The notes: generated by a model not told the origin, from the letters alone. A stretch of 64,000 nucleotides of DNA from Candidatus Yanofskybacteria bacterium (GCA_016185525.1 JACPNK010000005.1:28473-92472), one strand, 5' to 3'. Counted from the first letter of the stretch, positions 7,269-34,993 are shown. Numbers and translations are program-made.

Positions 7269-7834
7269 TGAGTACAAAAATTTCAATTATTATCTTTTCT
7301 TGGTTAGCCGCCATCAGCGGCTTATTTTTATTTTCCAAAACACCGGAACAGATTACTGACCTTCCAAAAACCGCCGGTTTGATAACAGAAATTTCCGTCT
7401 CGCCGATCCCTACAACGACACCGACAAAGACTCCCGGAACAACAACGACCGTAGCTAAGACAATAAATCCGCCTGCTTCTCTGACAAGCGTAGCCACCCC
7501 AACCGCAACCGCTCTAAACACAACTACCTCCACTAACCCGACGCCAACAACCAACACAACAACATTCCTTACCACGACGACACAATTTTTTACCTCTACT
7601 CCCGCTCCCACGACAACATCGACTGTAACTCCTGAACAGTCGGCAAGAATAAACATCAACACGGCAAACAGCCAAGAGCTGGAGAAGATTACCGGTGTCG
7701 GCCCGGTTATAGCTCAACGCATTGTTGACTATAGAAAAGAAAAAGGAGCATTTCAAAAAATTGAAGATATTAAAAAGGTAAATGGCATTGGAGATATAAA
7801 ATTTGAAAAAATGAAAGATGAGATTACAATATAA
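7268..7834 (+). CDS. comEA: ComEA-family competence protein (TM anchor, Thr/Pro-rich linker, tandem helix-hairpin-helix DNA-binding domain)
   Basis: C-terminal NINTANSQELEKITGVGPVIAQRIVDYRKEKGAFQKIEDIKKVNGIG is the canonical ComEA HhH pair. The start overlaps the ruvB stop (ATGA). Confidence 0.75.
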   Translation: MSTKISIIIFSWLAAISGLFLFSKTPEQITDLPKTAGLITEISVSPIPTTTPTKTPGTTTTVAKTINPPASLTSVATPTATALNTTTSTNPTPTTNTTTFLTTTTQFFTSTPAPTTTSTVTPEQSARININTANSQELEKITGVGPVIAQRIVDYRKEKGAFQKIEDIKKVNGIGDIKFEKMKDEITI

Positions 7835-17666: not shown

Positions 17667-17678
17667 AGTAATAAAAAC

Positions 17679-17709
17679 TTGGACTAGACAATCCAAGTTT
17701 TTATTAAAG
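17679..17709. terminator. bidirectional terminator hairpin between jag and the convergent propeller gene
   Basis: aaaaacttggactagacaatccaagttttt has an 11 bp stem including A:T pairs and is flanked by T runs. Confidence 0.5.
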
Positions 17710-18795
17710 GCTGATAGCGTAAAGATACTGGTCGTAGCCGTTTGTGAAAAAGATGAAATTTTCTGTTGGGGATAAAAAGGGTTTTTCAATACTAATAGAG
17801 TCGGCAGAATTGGACTGGAATACTAAACCAAATTCTTTTTTGTTCAGGTCAAATTCGTAAAGGCCTTCCTCTTCGCTATCAGCTTTGGTTCCTCCGCAAT
17901 AAAACTTTTGTGAATTTAAACGCCAAACACATTTTCCGGCATTTGTCCGCAGGTCAGTTTCCATACTCTCGTAATTCCCGTCTTTAATCCGAATTATATT
18001 TGTAACCGGGCCGATCCCCTCTTTATTGTAAGAATAAATCAAACTTAAACCGTCAGGAGACCAAAGAGTTTTCAAATTATCGTATGATTCTAGAATTTTT
18101 TCCAGTTCCCCAGTTTCTTTGTTTAACAAAAGTAAGCTTTTATCTGCTCCGCTTGGACTGTGGAAAGCGATGATGTCTTTACTTGGCCAGGTAATTTTTA
18201 GTTGGCCATTTCTGGTGGGCAGGATGTTTTTAAAAGACGAGCCGTCAGGGTTGGCAATACTGATATTTCCTTCTTCAGTCGTGGGTTCAAAAAATAGGTA
18301 GGCTATTTTTTGGCCGTCAGGCGACCAAGTTATGCCGGACATTTTAGCATTTAAGCTTACCAAGTCCTTATTTTTTAAGTCAAACAAACTTAAGGTTTGT
18401 CCGCGGGGAGTTTTTTTTGCCACAATCGCTTGACGGCCGTTTTTTGACCAGACGGCTTCGGTTATATTTTCTTTTATCTCGCCGGTAATAATTTGAGTGT
18501 TTTGGCCAGTAAAGTCGCTGGAGAAAATTTTGCCGGTGTCTTTCTCAAAATAAATAAGATTTCTGCCGTCTTCAGAAACAGTCGGCCCTATAACCTTGAC
18601 ACTGCTTAAGCGATTCAATTTTGCCACAACGCTTTTTTCCGGTCCGGTCTTGCCGGAGAAACTGGAGAAGCGGCTTAACCCCGCTATGTTGGCAGTTTGT
18701 CCGGTATTCTTGTTTGCCAAAAGATAGCCTCCTAAAAAAGTAATCAAGCCGAAGAGAATTGCTATTAGTATTATTAAAATCTTTTTTTGGTTCAT
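17704..18795 (-). CDS. TolB-like beta-propeller protein with N-terminal membrane anchor
   Basis: 363 aa; N-terminal TM, repeated PD40-like motifs (WSPDGQKIAY, WSKNGRQAI, WSPDGLSLIY). Confidence 0.6.
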   Translation of the reverse strand: MNQKKILIILIAILFGLITFLGGYLLANKNTGQTANIAGLSRFSSFSGKTGPEKSVVAKLNRLSSVKVIGPTVSEDGRNLIYFEKDTGKIFSSDFTGQNTQIITGEIKENITEAVWSKNGRQAIVAKKTPRGQTLSLFDLKNKDLVSLNAKMSGITWSPDGQKIAYLFFEPTTEEGNISIANPDGSSFKNILPTRNGQLKITWPSKDIIAFHSPSGADKSLLLLNKETGELEKILESYDNLKTLWSPDGLSLIYSYNKEGIGPVTNIIRIKDGNYESMETDLRTNAGKCVWRLNSQKFYCGGTKADSEEEGLYEFDLNKKEFGLVFQSNSADSISIEKPFLSPTENFIFFTNGYDQYLYAISL

Positions 18796-18838
18796 TTCTG
18801 TTAAGTCTAGCTTATCATGCTATTTATACTGCTTCAAA

Positions 18839-19429
18839 TTAACGTTTTATTAACTTTAAGGCAGATTTGGCAACAGCCAGCTTTTGGATCAAGGGAGCTT
18901 CTTTATTTTTTTCAATACTGGCCGCAACACTGAAAGCTTTAGAGGCAACCTTAAGTTCGGCTGATACAGGCGAAGGGATGTAAGAGGCAATCTTTAATCC
19001 TTTTTCTATGCGTGACATTAATTTAGGACGCGAAGCAATAAAACTCCAAGTAAGCAAGATAGTTCGCAAGGGAAGGATATTAAGAATTGGAACTGACTCT
19101 ATAAATAAAGCGCTAACCAGTTTTTTCCATTGTTTCCGACCGGCACGAGTAAATCCTAAAGTCACGAACAGTATGAAGTCAATAAATAGTCCTGTAAGCC
19201 AACCAATTGTGCCTACTGTGAATATTTCAATTAGGTCGGCAATAATACTTAATAATAAAGCAAAAATAAAAACCAACCAACCCATTTGGTCTTTTTTTTG
19301 CTGTTGCTTTTTGGCTTCTTCTTCGCTTGCTCGTCGCTCTTGAGCCAGCAATTCAGGGTTTCTAACGGCATCTAACTCTTGTGCTCTATACTCGTCTTGT
19401 TCGTCGTATGAATTAGTTTCTTGGTTCAT
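18839..19429 (-). CDS. membrane protein, acidic N-terminus, 3 to 4 TM helices (hypothetical)
   Basis: 196 aa; it shares the operon strand with the VirB4-like gene. Confidence 0.4.
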   Translation of the reverse strand: MNQETNSYDEQDEYRAQELDAVRNPELLAQERRASEEEAKKQQQKKDQMGWLVFIFALLLSIIADLIEIFTVGTIGWLTGLFIDFILFVTLGFTRAGRKQWKKLVSALFIESVPILNILPLRTILLTWSFIASRPKLMSRIEKGLKIASYIPSPVSAELKVASKAFSVAASIEKNKEAPLIQKLAVAKSALKLIKR

Positions 19430-19432
19430 GGT

Positions 19433-22400
19433 TTAACTTTTTTGCTGTTCTGCCCATTCTCTTTTAGCCTTTTCAATTTCCAGAATCTGGCGCGGGTCGG
19501 AAGTGATAATTTGATCTTCGGTATAAGAAGCGACAACTCTGATGCCGACGTGGTTAGAGCCGGCAAAAAACAGTCCGTGTCCGACGCCGGCCTCCAGCAA
19601 AAAGAATTTTTCAGCGTCTGTCAGGTTGAAAGTCTCTTTGACGCCTTCAATGGAGGCGGCGGATTGTTTCATTAAAATTTGGATTGAGGAGTTGGTGACG
19701 ATAGCCTTGCCATAAGAGGAGTTCAAAAAGTCCGGCACGTCTTGGGAAATTGTCGTCAATCCCAGAAAGTATTTTCTGGCTCTTTTGGCTACGTTGAACA
19801 GAAAAGCTCCGCCAATTTCGTATTTAAGCAGCCACCAGGCTTCGTCCACAACGAGAGTTCTTTTTTTAAGAACAGTGCGGACTTTGGTCCATACGTAATT
19901 TAAGACAAGATACATGGCGATGGGTCTCAACTCTTCTTCCATATCTCTGATGCTGAAAAGCACCAGCCTGTTGTCTAAGGAGACATTTGTCGGTTTGTTC
20001 AAAAATCCGGAGAAAGTTCCTTCCGTATATTTTTTTATGCGGATGGCCATAGATTCGGCTCCGGCAAGCCCTTCAAGGATATTTTGAAAATCAGAGAGCA
20101 ATGGCACTTCGCCTTGGCCGTTATTATTTTCTGTGGTTATATCTTTCAGCGCATAGGTTTGAATTAACGCCTCGTCAAGAAGAGAATCTTCTTCCGGCGT
20201 AAGTTCTCCCATCATTAACTTAAACAAACCGGTTAAGTCTAAAATGTGTGTCCGGAAAACATCTTTGAAATCTTCCCCTTCAGTCGGCGACGGCAGGTCA
20301 AACGGATTTATATGGTTATCCGAAGCAATGGAGATGTTTATTGAAGAGCCGCCAACCGTATCAGCCAAGTACCGGTATTCATTTTCGGGATCTATTATAA
20401 AAACCTCTGTGCCCAGCATTAAACTTCTCAATATTTCCAGTTTTACGGTATAAGAGTTATGAACAAACACCCCCCCGGTGCCAGCTAGAAAAACTTCATT
20501 GTCCACAGTCAAATCGTAAACATATTTTTCTTTTCGATTTTTAATTTTCTCTACTTTTTTGATGGGATCCCAGAATAAATTACTATTGGCCAGCATCTCC
20601 AGTTTTTCAAGCAATTGCTCCAGTCGTGGGACATTATTTATTCTTTCCCGGTATTTTTGTGAAATGTATTTGCTTGAATCCCAGAGCATTTTATATGAAG
20701 TGTTCCCGGACGGCCCGCTGATAAGAGCGCTTTGTAATGACGGATTAAAGTGATTCATAACTAACCCCATTTCTTGAAAACCAGAGCGAAGCAATTTTTT
20801 AATTTCTGCCAAAGAATAATCAAAACCGGCACCCATTGTTTTTAAGGCTTTTAATACATTAACTGTTCTGGGCGCTACTCCACCATTTTTCATTGTATGC
20901 CAGCTTTGTCCTAGAACCTGCCATAATTTGCAGTTTAAGTCCTTATTCTGTGCACCTTTCTCTATGATTGATTCTAAACTAGGAAGGTTAAGGTTAAAAC
21001 GGGAACTTTGATTTCTAAATTTATCTATAATTTTTCTAATTTCACTGATAACTACACTCAACTGTGCTGGTGATGGATCATAAATCTCTCTTTTTAGTGG
21101 AGATAGTTTTTGAAACCTTCTAGAATGAGCAGGTAATAGCCGGTCAATTTCTTTAAATATCTCACTAAGGCCAGGTATTATATCTACATTAGTATTTCTG
21201 TCTCGGCTAATTTGTTGAAGCAACAAGTTTCTTTTTCGTTTAGAAACGAAATTGATGTTGTCGGCGAATCTCTTCAAATTTTCCTGGCCGGAAATTGTCA
21301 GCTGCCAATAAAGTTTTTTTCTTATCCAACCGGAAGCCTTTTTCTTAATGGGTCTTATGCGGGCAACAATACCGAAGTAGTATAGCAAATAAGATAATTC
21401 AGAAATGAGCTGTTTAGATTTTGAACTGGCGCTGATTGAAGCACTTTCTACTCCGCCATCACCTTCAAAGTATGCACGCAAATAAGCGGCAATTACCGAT
21501 TTTTCTGCACCGAAAACAAAAGGCGCAATAGTTTTAGTGCCAGCTTTTTGCTTGCCCCCTATAGATTTAATGAGTTCAACAAAAGGCTTGTCGGCAGTGT
21601 TGATGCCACGATTGCCGAAGAAGTAAGGAATGCCTAATTGTCGGAAAGATTTAGCGCTATCATCTAATACTGTTGGGTCTAAGTTAGAAATCATCACCAC
21701 ATTTTCAGTAATTGTTCCTTCAGCAGCAATGTAACCGAGAATTTTCAGAAACGGCTCGTTAATAGGCCACTGCATTGGTAAATGACTGCGTTGATTTCTA
21801 GAAACAATCTTTAATTTGCTAAGAATAGGATCATTTAAAGAAATTCTAAATTTGGCCAGAATTTTGTACAAGTAATTTAGCGGAATAGGACGTCCGGCGC
21901 AGTATTTGTACAAGTAGCGATCTCTGTCATCTAGTTTTGTCTTTTTTAAAACACTTCTCCATGTTTGCAATAAAGGTCCGGCTCCAGCAACATAAATTTT
22001 ATTTGATTTTTTCAGCGCTTCCAGTAGATTCAAAAATTTTCGGGGCTGTTCGGATGGTTTGATGTGGCGAGGTAAAGGCAACCACTCACCTGCTTTAGTT
22101 TCAGAACCTTTTGATACTGCTATCTGTCCGTTTTTAAGTGTGACCAAATTATGGTCGCCGGTGGTAGTAATTGTTCGGCCGGAGCCAGTAGTAAATCGGT
22201 AGAAATAATCAGTGGCTACTTTTCTGGCCGCTACTGTTACCTTAGACCATGAACCTTTTAAATTCTTGTCAAAACTCCAAACTTCCAGATTGGGATCAAT
22301 AACCCCTTCTAACTCTTCGTCAATTTGCACAGCTCCATGTTTGGCAATTTCTTTTTCTATTAGTGGACCGATGGCAGACAGTTTTACTTGACCGTTGCGT

Positions 22401-23179
22401 CTAATTAAAACCGGCTCAGAGCCTTTTACCGACTTTCCGCCGCCGGATTTTCCGAAAACGACCGAGTTGTAATTTTCCAAAGAAAATCTGTCAAAAAGAA
22501 TCAAAGAGTTGTTGTGGGTGTTGATGCCGTACAAAAGGCCGCTATCTGAAGTCAGGTCGTAAGAAACAAATGGAAACACCGAAGAAATGGGTTGAGTATT
22601 CAAAGAACTGTGAGCATTCAAGAGATCGTTGTCTAAAGGCAGGGTTGAAAGGAAACCCTCTTTCATTCTGAAGGTTGCCGGTTTAAGGTAAATCAGTTGC
22701 GCTTCAAAAATGCCCCTGATCTTGGCCTCGGTTTCATCTAACTCTTTTTCATTTTGGCCGTAGATTGTGATATAAACTCCAAATTCAAAAAATCTGTCTG
22801 TGCCTTGCTGTATCGTGTCTCTCAAGTCCTCAATATCCGAAATGGCCGTGTCAAGAATGGGGTTGCGGACCTTGCCTTGATTGGCCTCTTCTATCGCCTG
22901 TGCCTGCAGACGGGCAAGTTTATCTCTTAGTTTTTTTAGGATACTGCCGGAGTCGGTTGGGTGAAAAAAGATTGAAACATCCAAAACACGATCCAGGTTT
23001 ATCACAGGCGAGAACCACTGGGTGTTCAGGTATCTCGGCAGAGTTGACAAAAATAAAGTCCGGGCAAACCTATCGCCTACCTGGATGTTGCTGCTGGAGA
23101 TATTAACGGCGCTTGGAGCCAGCTGGTCGTCCAAAAACTCTTCCGTTTTGGTTTCTATTTTTTTATTAAATATTGGCAT
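19433..23179 (-). CDS. VirB4/TrbE/CagE-family type IV secretion ATPase interrupted by an intein
   Basis: N-extein ends at the Walker A FGKSGGGK. C-extein resumes SYTVKLEIL... and carries Walker B LVVDEAWWLL. The spliced product would restore GKSGGGKS. Confidence 0.8.
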   Translation of the reverse strand: MPIFNKKIETKTEEFLDDQLAPSAVNISSSNIQVGDRFARTLFLSTLPRYLNTQWFSPVINLDRVLDVSIFFHPTDSGSILKKLRDKLARLQAQAIEEANQGKVRNPILDTAISDIEDLRDTIQQGTDRFFEFGVYITIYGQNEKELDETEAKIRGIFEAQLIYLKPATFRMKEGFLSTLPLDNDLLNAHSSLNTQPISSVFPFVSYDLTSDSGLLYGINTHNNSLILFDRFSLENYNSVVFGKSGGGKSVKGSEPVLIRRNGQVKLSAIGPLIEKEIAKHGAVQIDEELEGVIDPNLEVWSFDKNLKGSWSKVTVAARKVATDYFYRFTTGSGRTITTTGDHNLVTLKNGQIAVSKGSETKAGEWLPLPRHIKPSEQPRKFLNLLEALKKSNKIYVAGAGPLLQTWRSVLKKTKLDDRDRYLYKYCAGRPIPLNYLYKILAKFRISLNDPILSKLKIVSRNQRSHLPMQWPINEPFLKILGYIAAEGTITENVVMISNLDPTVLDDSAKSFRQLGIPYFFGNRGINTADKPFVELIKSIGGKQKAGTKTIAPFVFGAEKSVIAAYLRAYFEGDGGVESASISASSKSKQLISELSYLLYYFGIVARIRPIKKKASGWIRKKLYWQLTISGQENLKRFADNINFVSKRKRNLLLQQISRDRNTNVDIIPGLSEIFKEIDRLLPAHSRRFQKLSPLKREIYDPSPAQLSVVISEIRKIIDKFRNQSSRFNLNLPSLESIIEKGAQNKDLNCKLWQVLGQSWHTMKNGGVAPRTVNVLKALKTMGAGFDYSLAEIKKLLRSGFQEMGLVMNHFNPSLQSALISGPSGNTSYKMLWDSSKYISQKYRERINNVPRLEQLLEKLEMLANSNLFWDPIKKVEKIKNRKEKYVYDLTVDNEVFLAGTGGVFVHNSYTVKLEILRSLMLGTEVFIIDPENEYRYLADTVGGSSINISIASDNHINPFDLPSPTEGEDFKDVFRTHILDLTGLFKLMMGELTPEEDSLLDEALIQTYALKDITTENNNGQGEVPLLSDFQNILEGLAGAESMAIRIKKYTEGTFSGFLNKPTNVSLDNRLVLFSIRDMEEELRPIAMYLVLNYVWTKVRTVLKKRTLVVDEAWWLLKYEIGGAFLFNVAKRARKYFLGLTTISQDVPDFLNSSYGKAIVTNSSIQILMKQSAASIEGVKETFNLTDAEKFFLLEAGVGHGLFFAGSNHVGIRVVASYTEDQIITSDPRQILEIEKAKREWAEQQKS
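20456..22423 (-). mobile_element. intein (about 656 aa) with LAGLIDADG homing endonuclease inserted in the VirB4 P-loop
   Basis: Begins with Ser (SVKGSEPVLIRRNGQ... block A-like) and ends ...LAGTGGVFVHN followed by the +1 Ser. Internal LAGLIDADG-like motifs are ILGYIAAEGT and YLRAYFEGDGGV. Confidence 0.75.
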
Positions 23180-23789
23180 TGTAAAGTCTATAAAACATAC
23201 TAACCAGCTCTTCTCTTTCCAAAGTTACGGAGTTCAGGCCCATTCCACGCAGACCCTCTTTTATTATTTCAGCCCGCTGTTCTATCTGGCTTTTATACAA
23301 GTTGAAATCTTGCTCTTCAAGACTCTTTATTTTTTGAGCGGCTGAACCGAAGGCGCTTTTGATGTTCTCCAGAAAACTCTTTTTTGAAGCGGCTTCGGTT
23401 ATATATAATGGCACTACGACATAAAAATTTTTAGACATAATGTTGGCAAGTTCAGTCAGGCCTTTGATAAATCTTATATACTCAATCCCCTGAATTTTCA
23501 AAAGCTCGTTGTCCAGCTGGTCAACGAGGACTTGGGTTTTGGCCAAGTAGTTTTTAATATCAAGCTGGCGGGAGTGTACGGCAATTTGCAAAGGGAAATC
23601 AAGCGAGTTTAAAAAATTTTGAAACGCTTTGACGATTGCAATCTGTTCATCGTTTGATTTCAAATCAAAATTGACGGAGTCAACTTTCAAAATCAGGCGC
23701 ATTGAGCCGTTTTTAAGTATTACCACGCCGTCTTTAATATCGTGGATGTCAACAAACTGTTTTGTGTTTAGGTTTTTATTTTGGGGCAT
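23166..23789 (-). CDS. hypothetical soluble protein, translationally coupled to the VirB4-like gene
   Basis: 207 aa; the 3-prime end overlaps the virB4-like start by 14 nt. No recognisable motif. Confidence 0.4.
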   Translation of the reverse strand: MPQNKNLNTKQFVDIHDIKDGVVILKNGSMRLILKVDSVNFDLKSNDEQIAIVKAFQNFLNSLDFPLQIAVHSRQLDIKNYLAKTQVLVDQLDNELLKIQGIEYIRFIKGLTELANIMSKNFYVVVPLYITEAASKKSFLENIKSAFGSAAQKIKSLEEQDFNLYKSQIEQRAEIIKEGLRGMGLNSVTLEREELVSMFYRLYNANI

Positions 23790-24081
23790 GGTTTGTTTCT
23801 TCTTGGCCGGGCTTGTAGATGTATCTTTTGGGGTTAAAAGTAAAACTTATAGCATTGGCTAAGTAAACATACAGAGGAATTTCCGAAACTTTTATCAGCG
23901 CAAGACTCAAGGTGACTGCTATTACCGGTATTGCCAAAACTACAAACCAGCCCGGAGGAACAAGAAAAAATATCAGGAATAACAGCATTCCGCCGATGGT
24001 GATGAAAATAAACTGCTTAATAGTAAAAGGCCCGATTATCTTTTCTTCCGTTTCTATAAATTGTGGAACTTGAAATCTCAT
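23776..24081 (-). CDS. small 2-TM membrane protein (VirB3/PrgI-like position and topology)
   Basis: 101 aa with two hydrophobic helices, immediately upstream of the VirB4-like operon genes. Confidence 0.35.
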   Translation of the reverse strand: MRFQVPQFIETEEKIIGPFTIKQFIFITIGGMLLFLIFFLVPPGWFVVLAIPVIAVTLSLALIKVSEIPLYVYLANAISFTFNPKRYIYKPGQEETNHAPK

Positions 24082-24578
24082 TTATTTCTTAAATCAACGG
24101 TATTGTTTGGATTATTTATACCACCTGTCGCCGGGGCGGAGGATGGAGCTGTTTCTGTTTTCTTTCCAAACTTCTCAATGTGGAGTTTTTTGATGTCTTC
24201 AAGAGCGGGAGTGAAAAGACGGATTAGCTCATTCGCAATTTGTTTTGCTGATTCAGTAGTGATGTCAAGTTTTTCTGCAATTATTTTTACCATGTCGCCA
24301 AGATAAACTTTTGCAAGCAACAAGTCGCGGACAACTCGAGTAATTTCTCGTTTTTGCGGAACAGGGAGGTTAAACTTTGGACCTAGCTCTTCTTCAATAA
24401 ATTCGGCGGTCTCAAAGTCCAACAGAATTTTCTGAATGTTTTTAGTGGGTTCAAGCGTGCTTAAAATATATTTTTCCATTGATCTCTGGTCTGTAAAACT
24501 TTTTATGTCAATTTCGTAAGGTGTGTTGTACTCTCCTTCTTTTGAGAATTGTTGTTGAGTTGTAATGTCAATATCCAT
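24078..24578 (-). CDS. hypothetical protein
   Basis: 166 aa with no TM; the start overlaps the preceding gene. Confidence 0.35.
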   Translation of the reverse strand: MDIDITTQQQFSKEGEYNTPYEIDIKSFTDQRSMEKYILSTLEPTKNIQKILLDFETAEFIEEELGPKFNLPVPQKREITRVVRDLLLAKVYLGDMVKIIAEKLDITTESAKQIANELIRLFTPALEDIKKLHIEKFGKKTETAPSSAPATGGINNPNNTVDLRNK

Positions 24579-24595
24579 AAACTGTAAATTAAGGA

Positions 24596-26671
24596 TTAAG
24601 GAATTATTAATTCTTTTGCCGCCGCATCGGCGGTTGAATTATTGTCTCTTACTGCTTGGCGTAGCCTGTTTTTAAAAGTATTTCTAGCTTTGGCAGAAGT
24701 GAAACCCACAAGCTTGTTGTCCAAAGCGGTTTTGAAATCGGGGTCTGACCAGACAGTCATGGGCATTTTAGAAATCTCCACGGGGTTAGTTAAGGATTTT
24801 TCTATATATTGGTCTCGCCTCATAGGCGCAACTCCTGGTCTAGGCGGCAAGGTCATTTTGAAAGAAGCTACCAGATCAGGACGCACTTTATTAATGGCCT
24901 TTATGTAGTTCGCTCCATCTATAGTCTCGTTTCCTCCAAACAGCTCTAATCCGTTTTCAAAAGCCACATTATCAAATTCAGCGTCAGACAAAGCTTTTTC
25001 GTCGCCTTGTATAAATTTATACCATTCTTTTCTGGAAGAAATGGCGGACGGAGTTTTATATTTTAAGTAAGTTGGTCCTTCAGCTTTTGCCATTTGCACC
25101 AGCTGGCTCGTTGGAACTTTCTTGTAGCCACCTTTGGCGGCTCTTGCTGACATAGACTGCGCTACAAAAGCGTTTCTTTCTGTCCAGTCGGTCATGTCTT
25201 TGTCAAACTCTGCGGCGTCAATCAACCCTCTTTCATAAAGGAGCCCTCTTGCGGCCATGCCTTTTATACTGTTTCGGTCTTCTTTAAGGGTATTTGCTTG
25301 AAAAGTGTTGTCTACTGTGAGTTCTCCAGCAAGCTCTAGGTTCTTTAAGCGAGCTACCTCTGCATCTATCTCACCCACCTGCTGTTGCTGAAGTTTGGTT
25401 TCTGGGGTGTAGCCCAACTTTCTTGCCAACTTTTGTTCCCAAGCGGCAGTTTCTTTTTGGGCGCCTCTGGTGCCAGTATATAACTTACCGAGCAATCCAT
25501 ATTGTTCTGGTAAGCCTTCTTGTTTAACTCTTTTAAAAAGTTCTTGTGCGCCCGTAACACCAGTTTTTCTTTTTGCCCAGTTGTTTATGGTCCCGCTGAT
25601 ATTGCCGAAAACTTTGGTGGCGCCACTGCCGGCGGCAAAGCTAGCTTTCAAGGAAGCGGCGAGGCCGCCGATTAAAATGATGACAGTCAGGATCCAATAG
25701 AAAAGATCCTGAAAAGCAAAGCCAAAAAAGTTAGCTGCTCTAGTCGGCAATCCAACTGGACCGCTGCTTTGCTCCGCTAAAACAGCAGCGGCGCTTAAGT
25801 CAGGCCTGCCCTTGAGAATTACAATGCCCATCATAAGGGCGAATAAGTAAGTTGGCAGGAAAAAAGTCCAGCCGATAAACCAGTTCCACCATTTACTCCA
25901 AATCTGTCTTGTGCTGGGTAAAATATAAGAAATCCAGGCGATGGGCGAGACTATAAGTAAAGCCCACAAAACCGGCACTCTTACCATTGAAAATATCAGA
26001 GCCGCAAGCATTGCCAGCAAAGTGATAACGGCCACAATCAACATGCCACCAAGTGAAATTATGGCGCCTAAGGCTAAAGCTTCCGGGTCGCCTGAAGATT
26101 TTTCCAGGACAGCTTTTACGCTGCTGGTGCCTCCGCTTAGAGCGGCGCCTAATTTAGTGATTCCGAAACCGCCTGCCAAATCGATGGTGATGTCGCCAAA
26201 CTGTTTGAGCACCAGATTGGATAAGTTATTGGAAACGTCTATCAGAAATCCGCCTATCGCCAAACTAAAATTTATCAAAAGAGCGGCCACAATAAATTTG
26301 GCCATCAGGCCCTTCCAGTTGTAATTCTGGATGTCAAAAATAGTCGCAAAAGCAATGATGATTAAAATCAGGATAAAAAACATATTGGCGAAGTTGCGAA
26401 AAACTTCCCAAGAAGTTTTGACAATGGCGACTTCTTCAAAAAACCCTCCCTGAAATTTGAGGAACCAAGATAAGGCGTAAGCTGTCCAGGCTAGAGCTGT
26501 GCCTATGAATCCCATAACTAACCCCTGGAAGAACAAAATTATTTTTGAGAGAACTGTATTGACCATATCAATTCCCAAAAAAGCATGGGCTTTAGGCGCT
26601 GAAAAAACAAAAACAGCCAGGATAAAAATTGGTAGTATAAATTTTATTTTTTTGTAGATCGTTTTGCTCAT
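24596..26671 (-). CDS. polytopic membrane protein, VirB6/TrbL-like (putative channel component)
   Basis: 691 aa; signal peptide, at least 8 TM helices in the N-terminal two thirds, C-terminal soluble domain. Confidence 0.45.
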   Translation of the reverse strand: MSKTIYKKIKFILPIFILAVFVFSAPKAHAFLGIDMVNTVLSKIILFFQGLVMGFIGTALAWTAYALSWFLKFQGGFFEEVAIVKTSWEVFRNFANMFFILILIIIAFATIFDIQNYNWKGLMAKFIVAALLINFSLAIGGFLIDVSNNLSNLVLKQFGDITIDLAGGFGITKLGAALSGGTSSVKAVLEKSSGDPEALALGAIISLGGMLIVAVITLLAMLAALIFSMVRVPVLWALLIVSPIAWISYILPSTRQIWSKWWNWFIGWTFFLPTYLFALMMGIVILKGRPDLSAAAVLAEQSSGPVGLPTRAANFFGFAFQDLFYWILTVIILIGGLAASLKASFAAGSGATKVFGNISGTINNWAKRKTGVTGAQELFKRVKQEGLPEQYGLLGKLYTGTRGAQKETAAWEQKLARKLGYTPETKLQQQQVGEIDAEVARLKNLELAGELTVDNTFQANTLKEDRNSIKGMAARGLLYERGLIDAAEFDKDMTDWTERNAFVAQSMSARAAKGGYKKVPTSQLVQMAKAEGPTYLKYKTPSAISSRKEWYKFIQGDEKALSDAEFDNVAFENGLELFGGNETIDGANYIKAINKVRPDLVASFKMTLPPRPGVAPMRRDQYIEKSLTNPVEISKMPMTVWSDPDFKTALDNKLVGFTSAKARNTFKNRLRQAVRDNNSTADAAAKELIIP

Positions 26672-26679
26672 TGCTCAAG

Positions 26680-27918
26680 TTATTGATCTATGGTGGGGAT
26701 AGCGCATTGCTGTTCGCATTCAACTCGTTTATTATTTTCACAAATCTGTTTTTCTGCGGGAGTTGAAAGCGGATTACTGCAACTGGCTGATGCGTTTATG
26801 GCGCAGAAAGAATAGCAGTCATTTTGCGCCCCGCCAGTGTATTGCCCAGTTTGACTAGCGCCTTTGTCTTCGGAACCGGGGCTGACTGACGTGAAACCGG
26901 TTTTGTCCAAAGCAAAATTCGCTAGCTTGTTAATAGCGGCGCTGACTATAGCCATAATTACTTCCGAAAGCTCATCTGAAGTGACCAGCCACTTGGAGTT
27001 GTTATCAAACCATTGTGCCGCGCTTTCACCCAATATTTTTGCCGGGGTTAAAGTTTTACCAAGGAAGTTGCATTGAGCGCCGGCTCCAACGCTAGTTTGA
27101 CCTTGGCATTGGTTCAAACAAGTTTTGTCAGCGTCGCTGACGCATAAATTTTTTCGATTTAAATCAGGAATAATGTTACAGGCTCTTAGCAACGGGTCGT
27201 AACAGTTGTTGTAGCAGACAGTGCTTCTGACATTGGGAGTTCCTCGGCACGAACCTTGCGCTCCGGTAAAACCGCCGCCTCCGACAATTTCGCTTTGTCT
27301 AGCATTTTCTTGGGAGCTTCTTTGTTTATTTAATTCTTCCAAACTTATTGCCAAAGCTCCGGCTAAATTATTTTGCGGTTCCACCAAACGTGACCATGTC
27401 TCCCAGCCGCCGCCTTTTTCAAAACTTTTTTTAAAGTCAGCCCTGACCTTTTCTGGAATAGTGCATTTAATTTTAGTTTGAAATGGTGTCAGAGTGTCTT
27501 GTTTTAGTTCGTCATTAAAATCCGTCTGACCGATATCGACGTACGGAACACTGCTTGTTTGAAAGGCCAGGGCCAACGGCCCTCGTAAGTCGTCGCACAA
27601 AATACCCTTTTGTATAGAATAGTTTAACTGGGTGCGGAATTGATTTTCTCCTATTCTTTGGGCGTCAGCTAGAAACTTTTTCCAATTTTGCACGAAACTG
27701 GGCGCTTGTTGTCCTTTTTCAAGACCCAGGTTGTTTATGGAATTAACAACTCCGTTGCTTAGGTTTGTGAGCAGTCTTCTTGCCAAGGCCCTTGCTATCA
27801 AGTCAAGGCCGAATTCTTTAGTGATGTAAGCGATAGCGGCTGCTCCTTGACTGGCATAAAAAGGCACGCTAAAACCAAGCGCAAATATTAAAACAAGGAT
27901 AGTTATTTTTTTCCTCAT
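26680..27918 (-). CDS. secreted cysteine-rich protein (hypothetical; candidate surface or effector protein)
   Basis: 412 aa; signal peptide plus about 30 Cys in CxxC-like spacing (CYNNCYDPLLRAC, CLNQCQG, CENNKRVECEQQC). Confidence 0.45.
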   Translation of the reverse strand: MRKKITILVLIFALGFSVPFYASQGAAAIAYITKEFGLDLIARALARRLLTNLSNGVVNSINNLGLEKGQQAPSFVQNWKKFLADAQRIGENQFRTQLNYSIQKGILCDDLRGPLALAFQTSSVPYVDIGQTDFNDELKQDTLTPFQTKIKCTIPEKVRADFKKSFEKGGGWETWSRLVEPQNNLAGALAISLEELNKQRSSQENARQSEIVGGGGFTGAQGSCRGTPNVRSTVCYNNCYDPLLRACNIIPDLNRKNLCVSDADKTCLNQCQGQTSVGAGAQCNFLGKTLTPAKILGESAAQWFDNNSKWLVTSDELSEVIMAIVSAAINKLANFALDKTGFTSVSPGSEDKGASQTGQYTGGAQNDCYSFCAINASASCSNPLSTPAEKQICENNKRVECEQQCAIPTIDQ

Positions 27919-28904
27919 TTAGTCAATAAAATAGAAATGTCAAAAAAATCGCTGTCCGGCGGAGTGAGATTATTCGCTTTTATTTTAGCGTTAATTTCAA
28001 GCAGTATCGGCTGGGCCTCAAGGTAAACGGTTTGTAGGTTGCCCAAAACGACCATCTGCTTTAGGGGGTCGTCGGTGGAAAGCGCTATGGAGCGGTAGTA
28101 TAGCTCCAGTTTTTTTAAAAGGGTCAATATCTTTTTATGAATACCGAGCCACTCTCTAGAAACCGAAGAATTATTTATTTCGTCATATGCTTGTTGAAAT
28201 TTGACAGAGTGTTCTAGAAATTTGCTCTTAATTCTCTCTTTTTGCTGGTCGTCATAGATTTCTTCGCTATCGGCCGTTTGGTCGGGAGAAAAAAGCAAAA
28301 CAAGTTCTTTGGGTTGACCTAAAAGAATCTCGGTTATATCTTCTGATATAGCCCGAAAAGCAATATTTAAATAATTTTCCTGTGCCTCTTTTGTGTTTTC
28401 AACTAAGTTTTTGACCTCATCGCCGACATTTACATCTTCCAAAGCTGAAAGAATTGAATAAACAGTGGCGCTAGCCGTTGAATCTACGGATTGAGCGTAA
28501 GTCTGCGAGTTATTGCTTTTTTTCAAATCTCCGCTCAAAACACCTCCAGCAACCAAAGAAGCCAGTCTTTCAGTAGAGTTCATGGAAAGAAACCTTCTTG
28601 TTTTGGCAAGGGAATCGTTATCGGCTTGTGTGGGATTGTGGTCGGAAAAAGCTTCTTCGCCGTCTAAGTAGCCGTCGCCATCTGTATCCGGATTGTATGG
28701 ATCGCTACCCCAAACCGCTTCTTCTGCGTTTTTTAGGCCATCGTGGTCAAAGTCGTCGCTGTCCTGGTAGTCAACTTTTATGCTTTCTGAAACTACCGCA
28801 GTCGCAGGACTGAAAGTTTTGTTTATAAGTATGCCAACTCTGGCCACCACCAAACCGGCGGCTCCAAAAAGTATTACCATCAGGACTTTAATTGATTTGG
28901 TCAT
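27915..28904 (-). CDS. membrane-anchored protein with thrombospondin type 3-like Ca-binding Asp repeats
   Basis: 329 aa; N-terminal TM, DSDDFDHDGLKNAEEAVWGSDPYNPDTDGDGYLDGEEA. Confidence 0.45.
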   Translation of the reverse strand: MTKSIKVLMVILFGAAGLVVARVGILINKTFSPATAVVSESIKVDYQDSDDFDHDGLKNAEEAVWGSDPYNPDTDGDGYLDGEEAFSDHNPTQADNDSLAKTRRFLSMNSTERLASLVAGGVLSGDLKKSNNSQTYAQSVDSTASATVYSILSALEDVNVGDEVKNLVENTKEAQENYLNIAFRAISEDITEILLGQPKELVLLFSPDQTADSEEIYDDQQKERIKSKFLEHSVKFQQAYDEINNSSVSREWLGIHKKILTLLKKLELYYRSIALSTDDPLKQMVVLGNLQTVYLEAQPILLEINAKIKANNLTPPDSDFFDISILLTK

Positions 28905-28937
28905 AGTAGGTTCTAGGTTTCAGGTTCTAGCTTCTAG
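28905..28937. repeat. CTAG-rich repeat (left flank of four-helix-bundle gene)
   Basis: ggttctaggtttcaggttctagcttctag. The blocks are reverse-complementary to those at 29277-29312. Confidence 0.5.
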
Positions 28938-29276
28938 TTTAGAAATTATAACATTTAACATTTTTTGGACTTCTTCTAGTAAAGATGATGATTGTTCAAA
29001 ATCAATTTTTGGATACAGGTCTTTTGATATGATTAGTTGAGTTTCTAGTTCGGCGGCAGAAGAATAAGATATTCTTAAGAATTGCAAGTATTCCTTTAAA
29101 TTTTTGCGTTGTTGACCTTCGGCTATGTTAGAAGGAATTGATACTGCCGCTCTTCTCATTTGAGAGGATAGACCATAAATCTCGTTGAAAGGAAATTTTG
29201 CAGTGTTTTTATATATTTCTTTGACTAGTTCTATTCCTTTTTGCCAAACTATCAGTTCTTTAAATGATTTTATCAT
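28920..29276 (-). CDS. four-helix-bundle protein (23S rRNA intervening-sequence protein family)
   Basis: 118 aa; KELIVWQKGIELVKEIYKNT...RRAAVSIPSNIAEGQQR...SAAELETQL is the diagnostic family pattern. Confidence 0.75.
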   Translation of the reverse strand: MIKSFKELIVWQKGIELVKEIYKNTAKFPFNEIYGLSSQMRRAAVSIPSNIAEGQQRKNLKEYLQFLRISYSSAAELETQLIISKDLYPKIDFEQSSSLLEEVQKMLNVIISKLEART

Positions 29277-30939
29277 GCCTAGAACCTAGAACCTGAAAGC
29301 TAGAAGCTATCAGTACACTTAAACTAGCCAGTAAAATTGGCCAATCTCCTAGTTTATTATACAATGTTTTCTTGCTATTTAATACAATGTCGCCTGTTAA
29401 TATCTGAAATCCCTGCACTTGGAACGGATAAGTGCTTTCAGCACGAGAGTGCAAATCCGTTCCAAGTGAGGGGTCAAAACCCGTTTCGGAAGCTTCTCTT
29501 GAGATTTTTCCCGAGCCCGAAACCACAAAAGATGGTCCATAATTTGCGGCATAGATTAGGTATTTGTTGTTTTCAGCGGCGCGCAAAGAAGCCATAGCTT
29601 TAACTTGTCTGATTAAGTCTTTGGAACCGTTAGCAAAAGCGAAACTGCCTTGCACAGCTATGAGTTGTCCGCCAGACAAGGAAATATTTCTGGCCAAAGA
29701 CGGCGAAGAAATATCGGAACAAACCAAAGCCCCTACCCCCACCTGAGGACTGTCCTCAGTAAGATTGGGAAAATTAATAGCGGAGGGTGGCTGATGACCG
29801 CTTTGTAGCTCTTCAAAATTTTTAAGCTCTTCGGAATCAATGCCTAAAACTTTATCTAACAGGCGGAAGAGATAAGGCGCGTATTCCCCTCCCGGAGTCA
29901 AGAGTTTTTTGTCATAATCTCCAACCACGCCGCTTTTGGAATCCAAGTATATGGTTTTAGATTTTTTCAGAAAATTTTCCTGGATATGCGAGTTGTCTAT
30001 GATGGCGGTTTTGGAAGAAAATAGATTGTTGAAAAAAAGGCCGACATTCAAAGTATTGCCGAATAAACTTATGTTAGTAAAAAAATTGCTGGCTTCGGGA
30101 AAAACTATCAGTTTGGTTTCGGGTTCTTCTCTACTTATTTTATTCATCAGTTCAAGCTGTTTTTTGAAAAAAGAAAGCTGTTCTTGGGGGCTGTAGTTTT
30201 TTTTGCTTGGGATATAACTTTGAATGACCGCTACTTTAATCTTTTCGGCATTATTGTTGGAAGGAACGAACCAGTCAAATGGAAAGTAAGAAAGAGAAGT
30301 TAAAACAGCGATAAAAATCCAAAGTTTTTTGTATTGTCTTTTTTCCAAAAAAAGAAAAATTAAAACGGCGGCGAGAGCGACAAAAAAAGTAACGCCGTAA
30401 ATGCCAAGCAGAGACGATAACTTAAGAATCAAAGTGTTAGCATGCAAGTTGTAAGCAAGATTGCCGGCTGTCCAATCGGGTGAAATTGTATTGCCCGGGC
30501 TGAACCAGAGAATTGAAATTATAAATGATCTTAAATACTCAAACCAAACAAATATTGAAGGAAAAACAATCAAAGATGTCCAGCTTGTTTTCTTCTCAAT
30601 TTTCTTGAAAAGCCAAAATGCCGTTGCCCAGAGAAATGACATTGCCAGAGCGGTCAAAAGCCAAGCGAAAGCTATCAAACCGGCGGCAAGGTAGTGATTT
30701 TCAAAACCGAGTCCTTCAAGAGGATAAGTGTCCCAAAACCATCTGAAGACGAATAAGAAATAAACCAAACCAAACCAAAAGCCGGTTGAAAAAGCTTTCT
30801 GCGGGCGGATTTCAAGAAAAACAAAGAGAAGTATTAAAGCAAAAAATACCAGCCAGCCTAAGCCGAAAAAAGGCAAAGAAAAAGCCAAAATTAAACCGCC
30901 TAAAACTGCAAAGATAAGATTTGGCTTAATTTTCTCCAT
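29260..30939 (-). CDS. lnt: apolipoprotein N-acyltransferase-like (8-TM domain plus carbon-nitrogen hydrolase domain)
   Basis: 559 aa; CN-hydrolase triad candidates are E in IVFPEAS, K in DKKLLTPGGEYAP and C in GALVCSDI. The hydrophobic N-terminal half is typical of Lnt. Confidence 0.65.
   Translation of the reverse strand: MEKIKPNLIFAVLGGLILAFSLPFFGLGWLVFFALILLFVFLEIRPQKAFSTGFWFGLVYFLFVFRWFWDTYPLEGLGFENHYLAAGLIAFAWLLTALAMSFLWATAFWLFKKIEKKTSWTSLIVFPSIFVWFEYLRSFIISILWFSPGNTISPDWTAGNLAYNLHANTLILKLSSLLGIYGVTFFVALAAVLIFLFLEKRQYKKLWIFIAVLTSLSYFPFDWFVPSNNNAEKIKVAVIQSYIPSKKNYSPQEQLSFFKKQLELMNKISREEPETKLIVFPEASNFFTNISLFGNTLNVGLFFNNLFSSKTAIIDNSHIQENFLKKSKTIYLDSKSGVVGDYDKKLLTPGGEYAPYLFRLLDKVLGIDSEELKNFEELQSGHQPPSAINFPNLTEDSPQVGVGALVCSDISSPSLARNISLSGGQLIAVQGSFAFANGSKDLIRQVKAMASLRAAENNKYLIYAANYGPSFVVSGSGKISREASETGFDPSLGTDLHSRAESTYPFQVQGFQILTGDIVLNSKKTLYNKLGDWPILLASLSVLIASSFQVLGSRHDKII
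29277..29312. repeat. CTAG-rich repeat (right flank), partner of 28905-28937
   Basis: cctagaacctagaacctgaaagctagaagcta; it overlaps the 3-prime end of the lnt-like ORF. Confidence 0.5.
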
Positions 30940-31715: not shown

Positions 31716-31861
31716 GCAGACACAGCCTCTGAAGTCGCTGAGGAGGCAGTTTGCATGGTTGAGATTAAGTATAGTTATTCTTAACTTAATCTCAAAACTG
31801 CCGACGTCGCGAGCGAACGGAGTCGCTGGCGTAGTGAGCGTGCTGAAGAGGCTGTGTCTGC
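31716..31861. repeat. 146 bp MITE-like element, copy 1 (15 bp terminal inverted repeats GCAGACACAGCCTCT)
   Basis: About 89% identical to the reverse complement of 45448-45593. Termini are gcagacacagcctct...agaggctgtgtctgc. Confidence 0.6.
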
Positions 31862-34800: not shown

Positions 34801-34993
34801 CGGCTTTGTTTGTGAAAGTAACCGCTAAGATATTTTCTGGTCTTACTCCCTGCTGGATTAAGTGAGCAGTCCGATGGGTCAGCACCTTTGTTTTACCGCT
34901 GCCAGCGGCGGCAATAACCAAAACCGGACCCTCTGTGGCCCGTACCGCTTCAACTTGTTTTTCGTTTAAACCCTCAAAAAGATTTTTAGACAT
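31877..34993 (-). CDS. UvrD/PcrA-family ATP-dependent DNA helicase interrupted by an intein
   Basis: Walker A AAAGSGKTKVL and DEYQDTN. Motif III VGDDYQ is split from SIYGFRQAD by about 367 aa. C-terminal helicase motifs (QNYRST, VTRAKEKL) are intact. Confidence 0.85.
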   Translation of the reverse strand: MSKNLFEGLNEKQVEAVRATEGPVLVIAAAGSGKTKVLTHRTAHLIQQGVRPENILAVTFTNKAAGEMRERVISLIQNSKFPRSYANGGAGKIQNLGFPMLGTFHSISARLLRNEIGKFNSPYTSNFVIYDTEDQLGVIKKVMEELEIDTKKTNPRAVLARISEAKTNLAGPAEYSGSAKEFFEKIVAKIYPLYQKNLENSNAMDFDDLLFWTVKMLKQGKSILEKYQDRFRYILVDEYQDTNKPQYLFLKMLAQKHKNIMAVGDDYQCFPPKTKIKTEKGLKEIEKVSKGENILSPAGRSLTRPAKVLNARRFRYKGPLLEITTANGNVLQTTPNHILFSKLLPSKNFFLTYLMYSKKLGYRIGVTVGIRQIKKNKSRLGLNVRANQERADKMWILKLSPNRSEAHFWESYYAFNYGIPTTVFFADRGNGPDSGLITQKQIEKLFREIPSAERAKKLMLDLDLSFSYPHHRPQGTTKFQTKRTSVNLCYFSSSDGGTRAKSRRARVSINNQNKKIRKLLTDSGLKVRKGKANTWRIEKVFADNKKAEEFAGQIAELCGVEVTKHALITDINFDFMPASHLHSHMVVPVFNGKKFVNEKIIDIKKIDYNGPVYDLDIERTHTYTANNFAVHNSIYGFRQADLRNILSFERDYPEAKIVFLEQNYRSTQNILAAAQNIISNNKFQRHKNLWTENQEGEKILLAELGNEREEGKFITDEIKKGLKKGQDLNNFCVLYRTHAQSRAVEEAMLKAGLPYKIIGGLKFYERKEIKDVLAYLRLLLNPSDNFSLERIHNVPSRGIGKKTFERILEIQKQKSAGNVFELFKNHREELDKKALSGLASLSKTINALEEKLDESYLSKLIKKLLQNIDYQKYLQEKTVDHESRWENVKELLTVTSKYDNLKSRESLPVFLEEVSLIQETDQIKNQEKSATLMTMHASKGLEFPTVFLAGMEEGLFPHPRSITDPVELEEERRLCYVGITRAKEKLYLTHCQNRMVYGSSQFNPVSRFVSEIPEDFISENTKKPFRRDFNYEDFIDYD
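33098..34198 (-). mobile_element. intein (about 367 aa) in helicase motif III
   Basis: Begins CFPPKTKIKTEKGLKEI... (Cys1) and ends ...NNFAVHN followed by the +1 Ser of SIYGFR. No clear LAGLIDADG motif was seen, so the endonuclease domain may be degenerate or absent. Confidence 0.7.

Follow-up and report, generated by a model that had tools for sequence, protein, structure and literature searches.

Introduction

[quoted passage not shown] The VirB4 ATPases of these bacteria form a monophyletic clade nested within the MPF-FATA class of conjugation systems, congruent with the bacterial classes and with only rare inter-class transfer. TrsD, PrgI and VirB6 are frequent neighbours of VirB4 (a TrsD-like protein being the most frequent companion), VirB8 and VirB1 are rare, relaxases are almost absent, VirD4 homologues lie far from virB4 in most Patescibacteria, and in Paceibacteria and Microgenomatia the T4SS genes stand near dnaA, dnaN, rnpA, rpmH and ksgA (Quiñonero-Coronel et al., 2025; PMC12102498). 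VirB2-like pilin arrays have been reported for many Patescibacteria, not for classical MPF-FATA systems. Transposon sequencing in Southlakia demonstrated that a homologous cluster is essential for epibiotic growth, and protein export or another non-conjugative role was proposed for it (Wang et al., 2023; PMC10633639); a 2025 review describes such systems as the first T4SSs essential for their carrier bacteria (PMC12857230). Here we analyse such a cluster in a 64,000-nt stretch of DNA from Candidatus Yanofskybacteria bacterium (GCA_016185525.1 JACPNK010000005.1:28473-92472; hereafter the window, from whose start all coordinates are counted).

We argue that the window cluster is very probably a Patescibacteria-type T4SS, and we hold as likely the full account of it: an origin-proximal T4SS with an intein-split VirB4, lineage-specific surface parts and a non-conjugative role in host contact. 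It resembles the T4SSs of the Patescibacteria clade in having a chromosomal VirB4 gene with adjacent TrsD-, PrgI/VirB3- and VirB6-like genes, in the lack of a nearby coupling protein or relaxase, and in its place beside dnaA, dnaN, rnpA, rpmH and ksgA. Since this arrangement has already been published (Quiñonero-Coronel et al., 2025), the locus is a further case of a known Patescibacteria T4SS and nothing categorically new. The widespread intein in the VirB4 P-loop, the conserved accessory set of Paceibacteria, and the size and modular C-termini of one accessory family (p412) were not found described in the literature on these systems. Unlike cluster SEML1_0006-0019 of Southlakia epibionticum ML1, the window has no VirB2-like pilin array and no peptidase or lysozyme downstream of VirB4; it has a TSP3-anchor/p412 pair, p166, a small protein with three transmembrane (TM) helices, a PD40 propeller and the VirB4 intein.

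A split VirB4 motor with an intein in its P-loop

A sequence-only reading of the window had proposed a chromosomal, origin-proximal operon of about ten co-oriented minus-strand genes with several overlapping starts and stops. All ten open reading frames (ORFs) are present between 17704 and 29276 (363, 196, 1248, 207, 101, 166, 691, 412, 329 and 118 aa), and the cluster adjoins dnaA, dnaN, rnpA, yidC and jag. Nine of them belong to the cluster; the tenth, a 118-aa ORF that had extended the proposed span to 29276, is not part of the T4SS. The parts of the nine genes are as follows.

17704-18795, minus strand: PD40/TolB-like propeller protein, 363 aa (Pfam, TIGR02800)
18839-19429, minus strand: membrane protein, 196 aa, p196 (hydropathy; family after VirB4 in relatives)
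19433-20455, minus strand: VirB4 C-extein, 340 aa (starts with Ser+1, carries Walker B LVVDEAWW)
20456-22432, minus strand: VirB4 intein, 659 aa, with LAGLIDADG homing endonuclease (Pfam, junction residues)
22433-23179, minus strand: VirB4 N-extein, 249 aa, ending GKSGGGK (CagE_TrbE_VirB and TraC_F_IV matches, residues 83-183)
23166-23789, minus strand: TrsD-like protein, 207 aa (matches N-terminal positions of VirB4 models)
23776-24081, minus strand: PrgI/VirB3-like protein, 101 aa, two TM helices (Pfam PrgI)
24078-24578, minus strand: soluble protein, predicted cytoplasmic, 166 aa, p166 (no TM helix; family between VirB6 and PrgI)
24596-26671, minus strand: extended VirB6-like protein, 691 aa (hydropathy, family profile, structural model)
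26680-27918, minus strand: predicted secreted, all-alpha, Cys-containing protein, 412 aa, p412 (signal-like N-terminus, family alignment)
27915-28904, minus strand: TSP3 protein with TM anchor, predicted extracellular, 329 aa (TSP3_bac match)

The 1248-aa ORF encodes a VirB4 precursor whose residues 250-908 are the intein, the exteins together amounting to 589 aa. Pfam identifies LAGLIDADG_3 (E 1.2e-20) and Intein_splicing (E 9e-16) within the ORF, with CagE_TrbE_VirB/TraC matches preceding the intein and a TraG P-loop match following it. The insertion falls between Lys and Ser of the Walker A motif, the junctions being GKSGGGK↓S(250)VKGSEPV… and …GGVFVHN(908)↓SYTVKLEIL. The element has the complete set of intein features, namely an N-terminal nucleophile (Ser1), the TxxH of block B (TTGDH), two LAGLIDADG motifs (LGYIAAEG and YLRAYFEGDGG), a terminal HN (in VFVHN) followed by Ser+1, and an in-frame insertion in a host motif; its GC content is 38.5 %, against about 43.7 % in the VirB4 exteins. 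The Walker A sequence GKSGGGKS is reconstituted solely after removal of the intein, so that the 1248-aa precursor would have to splice in order to regain its P-loop and yield an active ATPase of 589 aa.

The intein-free sequence scores 356.6 bits with NF045971 (the CD1110-family VirB4-like equivalog of NCBIfam; cutoff 325), and its best PDB match is 4ag5, a VirB4 ATPase domain (E 1.4e-43). The ATPase thus groups with the VirB4s of secretion and conjugation and not with non-secretion P-loop families. The intein-less orthologues at three related loci (L001, L002 and L005) read VVFGKSGGGKSY(V/T/A)VKLEILRSLM, which is the predicted ligated sequence except at one position. The L002 junction is identical to that of the predicted spliced VirB4, and L003 and L055 have the same junction with few further substitutions. 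The intein-less insertion site in the DNA of L001 and L002 is GGAAAG↓TCTTATACC. The assignment to a VirB4/TrbE-like ATPase made in the sequence-only reading therefore stands, whereas its plain length of 1248 aa resolves into 589 aa plus an intein.

The 207-aa ORF, whose end overlaps the start of VirB4 by 14 nt, had been described only as a protein coupled to the ATPase; the overlap is real, and the split nature of VirB4 had been missed. The ORF matches positions 11-168 of VirB4 models (NF045971 and NF045975) and the TrsD model NF041427, in each case below the curated cutoff, and has a precomputed PF26593 TraC-like match. At two loci (L051 and L052) a single VirB4 ORF of 790-795 aa is colinear with the 207-aa protein plus the extein, and three loci in all (L051:9299-11686, L052:9314-11686 and L028:9572-11722) have such a fused ORF, of 716-795 aa, for TrsD and VirB4. 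The coexistence of split and fused forms in related genomes settles the identity of TrsD: judged by this colinearity, the 207-aa protein is VirB4's N-terminal domain, encoded by a gene of its own. VirB4 is, by its sequence, split twice, at the gene level (TrsD and VirB4, as in pGO1-type systems) and at the protein level by the intein.

We compared the cluster with the MPF-FATA systems of pGO1/pSK41 (TrsC-TrsD-TrsE), Clostridioides difficile CTn2 (whose VirB4 belongs to the CD1110 family) and pCF10 (PrgH-PrgI-PrgJ). The window shares with them a VirB4 above the CD1110-family cutoff, a separate TrsD-like protein as in pGO1, a PrgI family protein, and a VirB6-like protein whose N-terminal half is polytopic and whose C-terminal half is large and hydrophilic.

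PrgI and VirB6-like membrane proteins

The 101-aa protein is clearly PrgI/VirB3-like, as had been read from its two TM helices: it has two adjacent hydrophobic helices and scores 45.4 bits with Pfam PrgI (cutoff 27). The 691-aa protein consists of a signal-anchor, about seven further hydrophobic helices and a hydrophilic C-terminal half of about 340 aa that starts K/R-rich; the helix count and the positive-inside rule would place this all-alpha C-terminal domain in the cytoplasm. Searched alone, the window protein matches neither a VirB6 model nor Pfam TrbL. The profile of its 27-member family has as best PDB match TrwI, the VirB6 of R388 (E 0.0025), and two homologues, P0109 (E 5.6e-50) and P0157 (E 7e-25), exceed the Pfam TrbL/VirB6 gathering score. 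An AlphaFold2 model (mean pLDDT 82.6, about 96 in the C-domain) has TrwI chains as its top Foldseek matches (probability 0.99, E 0.17). Each of these lines is moderate, and they agree; we accept the protein as a putative extended VirB6, in keeping with the polytopic VirB6/TrbL-like protein that had been proposed.

DotA of the Legionella Dot/Icm system (PDB 9ngy), which we take to be VirB6-like, is a further structural match. Sequence identity to TrwI (PDB 7o3v) and DotA is only 7-13 %, and, unlike both, the window protein has the extra C-domain of about 340 aa, for which no convincing structural match was found. Unlike in the TrwI system, no VirB5 partner of the 691-aa protein is detectable. 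A fused VirB2 pilin at its N-terminus is not supported, the TrbC/VirB2 match (E 0.0013) being below the cutoff and confined to one of the 27 family members.

Conservation of the locus among relatives

A scan of one genome per species found 529 relatives, the best 80 of which, all metagenome-assembled genomes (MAGs) of Patescibacteria and mostly of Paceibacteria/Parcubacteria groups, were taken as loci; their gene content was determined by tblastn and by iterative hidden Markov model searches on their ORFs. Contig ends cut many of these loci, and the counts are therefore lower bounds. The recurrent gene order is given below with the number of the 80 loci that carry each gene.

Position 1, ksgA: 36 (tblastn)
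Position 2, Lnt-like gene (optional): 7
Position 3, TSP3 protein: 37, directly upstream of the p412 family
Position 4, p412 family: 35
Position 5, VirB6-like protein: 55
Position 6, p166 family: 58, between VirB6 and PrgI
Position 7, PrgI: 69, directly upstream of TrsD
Position 8, TrsD: 73
Position 9, VirB4: 80
Position 10, p196 family: 31
Position 11, PD40 propeller: 44, downstream of VirB4
Position 12, jag/yidC/rnpA, then dnaA and dnaN: jag 37, yidC 59, rnpA 28, dnaA 56, dnaN 55 (tblastn)

PrgI and the VirB6-like protein are thus co-conserved with VirB4 and have the topology expected of them, which favours the T4SS reading. Dozens of species-level genomes, with VirB4 identities as low as 50 %, share the position and order beside dnaA and dnaN, and the recurrent synteny argues against a recently integrated element; on this evidence the cluster is chromosomal and vertically inherited.

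This bears on another view, in which the cluster would be an integrated conjugative element, decayed or cryptic, whose mobility genes have been lost or lie outside the window. Its VirB4 does belong to a conjugation class, MPF-FATA (Quiñonero-Coronel et al., 2025), and selfish elements occur in or near the cluster, namely the intein with its homing endonuclease and a cassette flanked by inverted repeats (described below). Against this stand the conserved place beside dnaA and dnaN, a GC content equal to that of the flanks, the failure to find an integrase, a relaxase or att-like direct repeats at the cluster, and the monophyletic, class-congruent Patescibacteria clade with its rare inter-class transfer. 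We consider such an origin of the present locus very improbable.

Divergence is uneven along the locus. Between the window and its closest relative (L001), identity is 97 % for DnaA, 91-92 % for VirB4, 87 % for PrgI and 86 % for TrsD, then 76 % for the TSP3 protein, 68 % for PD40, 52 % for p412, 33 % for p166 and 22 % for p196. Taking the two relatives L001 and L002 together, p196 and p166 are only 20-34 % identical to their positional counterparts, the DnaA proteins being 86-97 % identical. In many loci of the L011-L041 type about 2.5 kb of extra uncharacterized coding sequence stands between VirB4 and the PD40 gene (+1.7 to +4.5 kb after VirB4), and loci of the Nealsonbacteria type have jag immediately after VirB4; the downstream half is therefore far more plastic than the upstream half.

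Accessory proteins

The 329-aa protein has a TM anchor, Ca-binding Asp repeats and a helical C-domain. Its bacterial TSP3 match (TSP3_bac, 28.6 bits; cutoff 25) bears out the thrombospondin-type repeats that had been seen in it, and Y178, P249 and H256 are conserved in its family (alignment A5). The adjacent p412, which had been described as a secreted Cys-rich protein, has a signal-like N-terminus; the approximately 30 cysteines then ascribed to it come down to 16. It combines a conserved core (motifs GGGW..W….PQNN..G, GxGF and TPG) with lineage-specific Cys-rich inserts, one of which, of about 50 aa, is absent from the relatives L001-L003. Alignment A3 shows C224 of the core as near-invariant and C108, C152 and C283 as fully invariant. 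A wider alignment (A10) has four invariant cysteines, probably these same four. The core cysteines probably form disulfides, to judge from this conservation. A profile search of 1.84 billion representatives retrieved 3111 relatives of p412 at E<=1e-3 and 1195 at E<=1e-10. The family has a conserved core of about 260 aa followed by C-termini of widely differing length, in which PKD, B-lectin, TIG, TSP3, DUF7910 and F5/8-type-C domains are found where anything is recognizable; the family itself has no Pfam model and no recognizable fold. Directly upstream of VirB6, the genes for the TSP3 protein and p412 invariably stand side by side, and in one locus (L064:3057-5597) they make up a single fused ORF of 847 aa. 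None of the secreted proteins of the cluster has a lipobox cysteine.

The 363-aa protein matches Pfam PD40 (E 6e-11), in agreement with the TolB-like propeller proposed for it, and the TIGR02800 TolB propeller (E 2e-10). With its one N-terminal hydrophobic segment it is predicted to be a TM-anchored, extracellular, lineage-specific accessory protein.

Two small proteins are hypervariable. p166 has no TM helix and comprises a helical domain of about 100 aa, a low-complexity linker and a conserved C-terminal motif (alignment A4), which is DPYRE in most lineages and NNPNN.VDLRNK in the Yanofskybacteria group; it matches no PDB entry or Pfam family, and it is a hypervariable accessory protein or a candidate substrate. 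An HU/IHF-like DNA-binding protein was rejected for p166, since the sub-threshold Bac_DNA_binding match (E 2e-4) was seen only in the window member among 29.

p196, whose family directly follows VirB4 in 31 loci, has a charged N-terminus, two to three TM helices, a conserved D/E in TM1 and an E.IP..ILP motif. It had been called an acidic membrane protein: it is a membrane protein, but with 21 D+E against 28 K+R it is net basic, being acidic/charged only in the N-terminal ~45 residues. At least two sequence types of p196 seem to be present among close relatives (the window, L058, L003 and L004, as against L001, L002, L006 and L007). It has no Pfam family, and matches to IcmG/DotF (E 0.035) and TctB (E 0.0027) were rejected as far below the cutoffs.

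Dozens of Paceibacteria genomes show this gene order, and for that reason the accessory genes probably represent lineage-specific parts of the apparatus or of host contact, and the fast evolution of p412, p166 and p196 would fit host-facing or translocated proteins. Alternatively, only TrsD, PrgI, VirB4 and VirB6 may form the system, with the TSP3 protein, p412, p166, p196 and PD40 as unrelated operon neighbours. None of the five is homologous to a known T4SS part, PD40 and p196 are absent from many loci in which jag directly follows VirB4, and operon membership alone is weak evidence, since ksgA and the Lnt-like gene are co-oriented and overlapping in the same string. One argument against mere neighbourhood is the position of p166, which in 58 loci separates VirB6 from PrgI, the start and stop codons overlapping or lying close together. 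The invariable pairing of TSP3 and p412 upstream of VirB6 and their fusion also speak against it, as does the p412 family, whose extracellular topology and variable, adhesion-type ends suit a monoderm T4SS whose surface part is otherwise missing. We regard this alternative as rather unlikely.

Components looked for and transport function

Pfam scans found no relaxase, VirD4/TcpA coupling protein or integrase in the cluster, as the sequence-only reading had stated, nor, a Xer-like recombinase aside, among about 50 further large ORFs across the 64 kb. The latter are housekeeping genes save for a PilB-type ATPase, a ComEA-like protein, the Xer-like recombinase, PNPase and a LysM-M23 peptidase. 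The cluster has no flanking direct repeats or att-like sites. No cluster ORF matches a Pfam or NCBIfam sequence model for a VirB8-like protein (PrgL/TcpC, NTF2-like) or a VirB1-like cell-wall hydrolase; the LysM-M23 peptidase is a possible stand-in for VirB1. There is no VirB2 pilin or pilin array in the cluster and no array of small two-TM genes in the window. In the ORF-by-ORF model searches that had been called for, VirB4 and PrgI were thus found directly and VirB6 through its family and homologues, and VirB8 and TcpC were not matched. Unlike the MPF-FATA comparators, the cluster ORFs include no detectable VirD4/TcpA, relaxase/oriT, VirB1-like, VirB8/PrgL/TcpC-like or PrgB-type adhesin component, and the cluster holds a syntenic chromosomal position instead of being carried by a mobile element.

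Since no relaxase, coupling protein or integrase accompanies it, the cluster is most likely not conjugating. The earlier suggestion that it is non-conjugative and may serve host interaction, as in ultrasmall epibionts, agrees with what is reported for these bacteria (Quiñonero-Coronel et al., 2025; Wang et al., 2023), and by analogy with them we lean slightly towards a non-conjugative role in host interaction. By sequence and structure comparison, its parts are a cytoplasmic motor of TrsD and the VirB4 ATPase, a PrgI anchor and a VirB6 channel protein with a large C-domain; the membrane part would also include p196, a hypervariable protein with three TM helices. The docking surface provided in other systems by a coupling protein may here be formed by TrsD and the C-domain of VirB6; instead of pili, p412 on its TSP3 anchor and the PD40 propeller may form a wall-spanning or host-contact part; and p166 may be a cytoplasmic adaptor or a substrate. 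Such a system would move macromolecules between epibiont and host by contact, or attach to the host, rather than conjugate. The specific roles given here to the accessory proteins are tentative.

The partners of VirB4 and VirB6 in Paceibacteria would then be not pilins but the TSP3-anchor/p412 pair, PD40 and two hypervariable small proteins, all of them candidates for host contact or for substrates. More speculatively, a surface module consisting of the TSP3 anchor and of p412 with a host-specifying C-terminus may have replaced the VirB2 array of Saccharimonadia, with p166 as a translocated protein; the C-terminus of p412 would consist of Cys-rich helices here and of lectin, PKD, TIG or discoidin domains elsewhere. 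We would not expect this particular scenario to hold in full.

Several points weigh against the account as a whole. Its function is extrapolated from one Saccharibacterium, the cluster of which differs (pilin array, peptidase, lysozyme). No VirB8-, VirB1- or VirB2-like component was found in the cluster, and the genome beyond the window could still encode a relaxase or coupling protein. PD40 and p196, missing from many related loci such as those of the Nealsonbacteria type, may be mere neighbours. The scores behind VirB6 are individually weak, and the splicing competence of the VirB4 intein is deduced from its conserved residues.

It is also conceivable that the apparatus is a T4SS-derived importer of host DNA or RNA, comparable to Helicobacter ComB or archaeal Ced, in a cell unable to make nucleotides. 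The ATPase matches CedB, the ATPase of Ced DNA import, weakly but non-randomly (E 1.7e-8, far below the cutoff); neither a relaxase nor a type IV coupling protein was found in the cluster or in the roughly 50 window ORFs; genes for PNPase and a ComEA-like protein lie in the window; and a 2026 preprint (10.64898/2026.06.21.733656) proposes T4SS-like tubes and feeding on host RNA in a cultivated relative. However, the match to conjugative VirB4 amounts to 356 bits against 33.6 bits for CedB, and the sequence gives no direction of transport. In Southlakia, moreover, transformation needs comEC and type IV pili, and comEC is dispensable where the T4SS is essential (PMC12857230), a result that counts against DNA uptake through ComEC and not against other import routes. 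We consider import unlikely.

Distribution of the VirB4 intein

When the whole precursor was used as query, the matches comprised at least 120 clusters (90 % identity) of intein-bearing VirB4 proteins of about 1240-1300 aa, 48-66 % identical over their full length and with the same three Pfam domains; their sources include Nealsonbacteria, Taylorbacteria, Harrisonbacteria, Yanofskybacteria and Paceibacterales. The junction HN↓S[YF] occurs in about 89 of the 120 clusters listed, in most of those as HN↓SY. Records of these proteins at NCBI and JGI are often named just 'LAGLIDADG family homing endonuclease' or 'intein/homing endonuclease' (for example P0180, P0185, P0187, P0236 and P0255). Surveys based on product names will therefore miss the T4SS ATPase in many Paceibacteria, and the protein sizes mislead.

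Among close relatives of the window, L001 and L002 (VirB4 91-92 % and 89 % identical) lack the intein. It is present in L058, a Yanofskybacteria MAG with a 90 % identical VirB4 whose contig begins inside the intein (L058:1-147). Assembly breaks inside the VirB4 intein recur in near-identical strains (the L058 contig start, the partial protein P0182, and the contig ends of L081 and L083), and Logan contigs with identical neighbouring genes stop about 500 residues into the VirB4 gene. The contig breaks, together with the intein-plus and intein-less relatives, suggest a presence/absence polymorphism; the breaks may reflect alleles with and without the intein coexisting in populations, or micro-diversity of the intein.

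VirB4 inteins and P-loop insertion sites have been catalogued before; the catalogue lists five VirB4 inteins from Firmicutes and Proteobacteria and reports that inteins recur in the P-loops of several ATPases, such as DnaB, MCM and RFC-S (Novikova et al., 2016; PMC4760082, Table 3 for the VirB4 inteins). Like the P-loop inteins catalogued there, the window intein is of class-1 type, with Ser1, TxxH, terminal HN plus Ser+1, a LAGLIDADG endonuclease and a Walker A insertion. Unlike the VirB4 inteins in that catalogue, it has as host a chromosomal VirB4 (essential in the one species tested), and the allele is widespread. The Patescibacteria T4SS survey (Quiñonero-Coronel et al., 2025) makes no mention of VirB4 inteins, and a literature search for intein and Patescibacteria found nothing relevant. 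As a secondary possibility, the retained intein may make VirB4 activity, and hence host engagement, depend on conditional splicing.

A second intein, of about 365 aa, interrupts the helicase motif of the PcrA/UvrD gene further upstream (GDDYQ↓C…FAVHN↓SIYGFR). It has no LAGLIDADG match, and kinship of the two inteins was rejected, there being no significant similarity between them.

The IVP cassette and the surroundings of the cluster

The same-strand string runs on upstream of the nine T4SS genes through the 118-aa ORF, the Lnt-like gene, ksgA and the helicase gene. These neighbours, and a hairpin at the other end of the cluster, are as follows.

28920-29276, minus strand: 23S_rRNA_IVP protein, 118 aa (PF05635, E 2.8e-35)
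29260-30939, minus strand: Lnt-like apolipoprotein N-acyltransferase, 559 aa (LNT_N and CN_hydrolase)
31877-34993, minus strand: PcrA/UvrD helicase with intein (helicase motif interrupted)
17669-17706, minus strand: hairpin with a 17-bp stem, directly after the stop of the last gene (terminator-like scan)

The 118-aa protein is a four-helix bundle of the 23S_rRNA_IVP family. Its ORF is bracketed by 31-nt inverted repeats (28907-28937 and 29279-29309) that are 90 % complementary, with 0 matches expected by chance; the right arm sits in the 3' end of the Lnt-like ORF, which has 559 aa here and 528 aa in L001, where the cassette is absent from the equivalent position. IVP homologues occur elsewhere inside the T4SS cluster in 8 of the 80 loci, several of them bracketed by inverted repeats of 17-26 nt (L029, L061, L002, L064 and L045). 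From its sequence, the gene with its repeats looks like a small hairpin-bounded mobile cassette. An identification of the protein as the Avd of a diversity-generating retroelement was rejected (bAvd E 0.003, against E 2.8e-35 for 23S_rRNA_IVP); there is no reverse transcriptase and no template/variable repeat pair between 15 and 36 kb of the window. The Lnt-like gene, which immediately precedes the T4SS genes, overlaps both the IVP cassette and ksgA; only seven close relatives have it at this position.

Other genes of the window encode a PilB/T2SSE-type ATPase (4250-5905), the ComEA-like HHH_3 protein with a Thr/Pro-rich linker (7268-7834), the Xer-like tyrosine recombinase (46092-47048), PNPase (53425-55521) and the LysM-peptidase M23 (59401-60489).

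Gaps between the cluster ORFs are at most 43 nt, and neighbouring ORFs overlap at several starts and stops, by 4-17 nt (the 207- and 1248-aa ORFs by 14 nt, 101 and 207 by 14, 166 and 101 by 4, 329 and 412 by 4, and 118 and the 559-aa Lnt-like ORF by 17). A promoter scan gave matches that barely exceed the shuffled expectation, and no clear operon start; the start possibly lies at ksgA (31768-31795). Downstream, on the opposite strand, follow jag, yidC, rnpA and rpmH (the last recognized by direct translation), then dnaA and dnaN, and the hairpin at 17669-17706 is probably, by its sequence and position, a bidirectional terminator between the convergent PD40 and jag genes.

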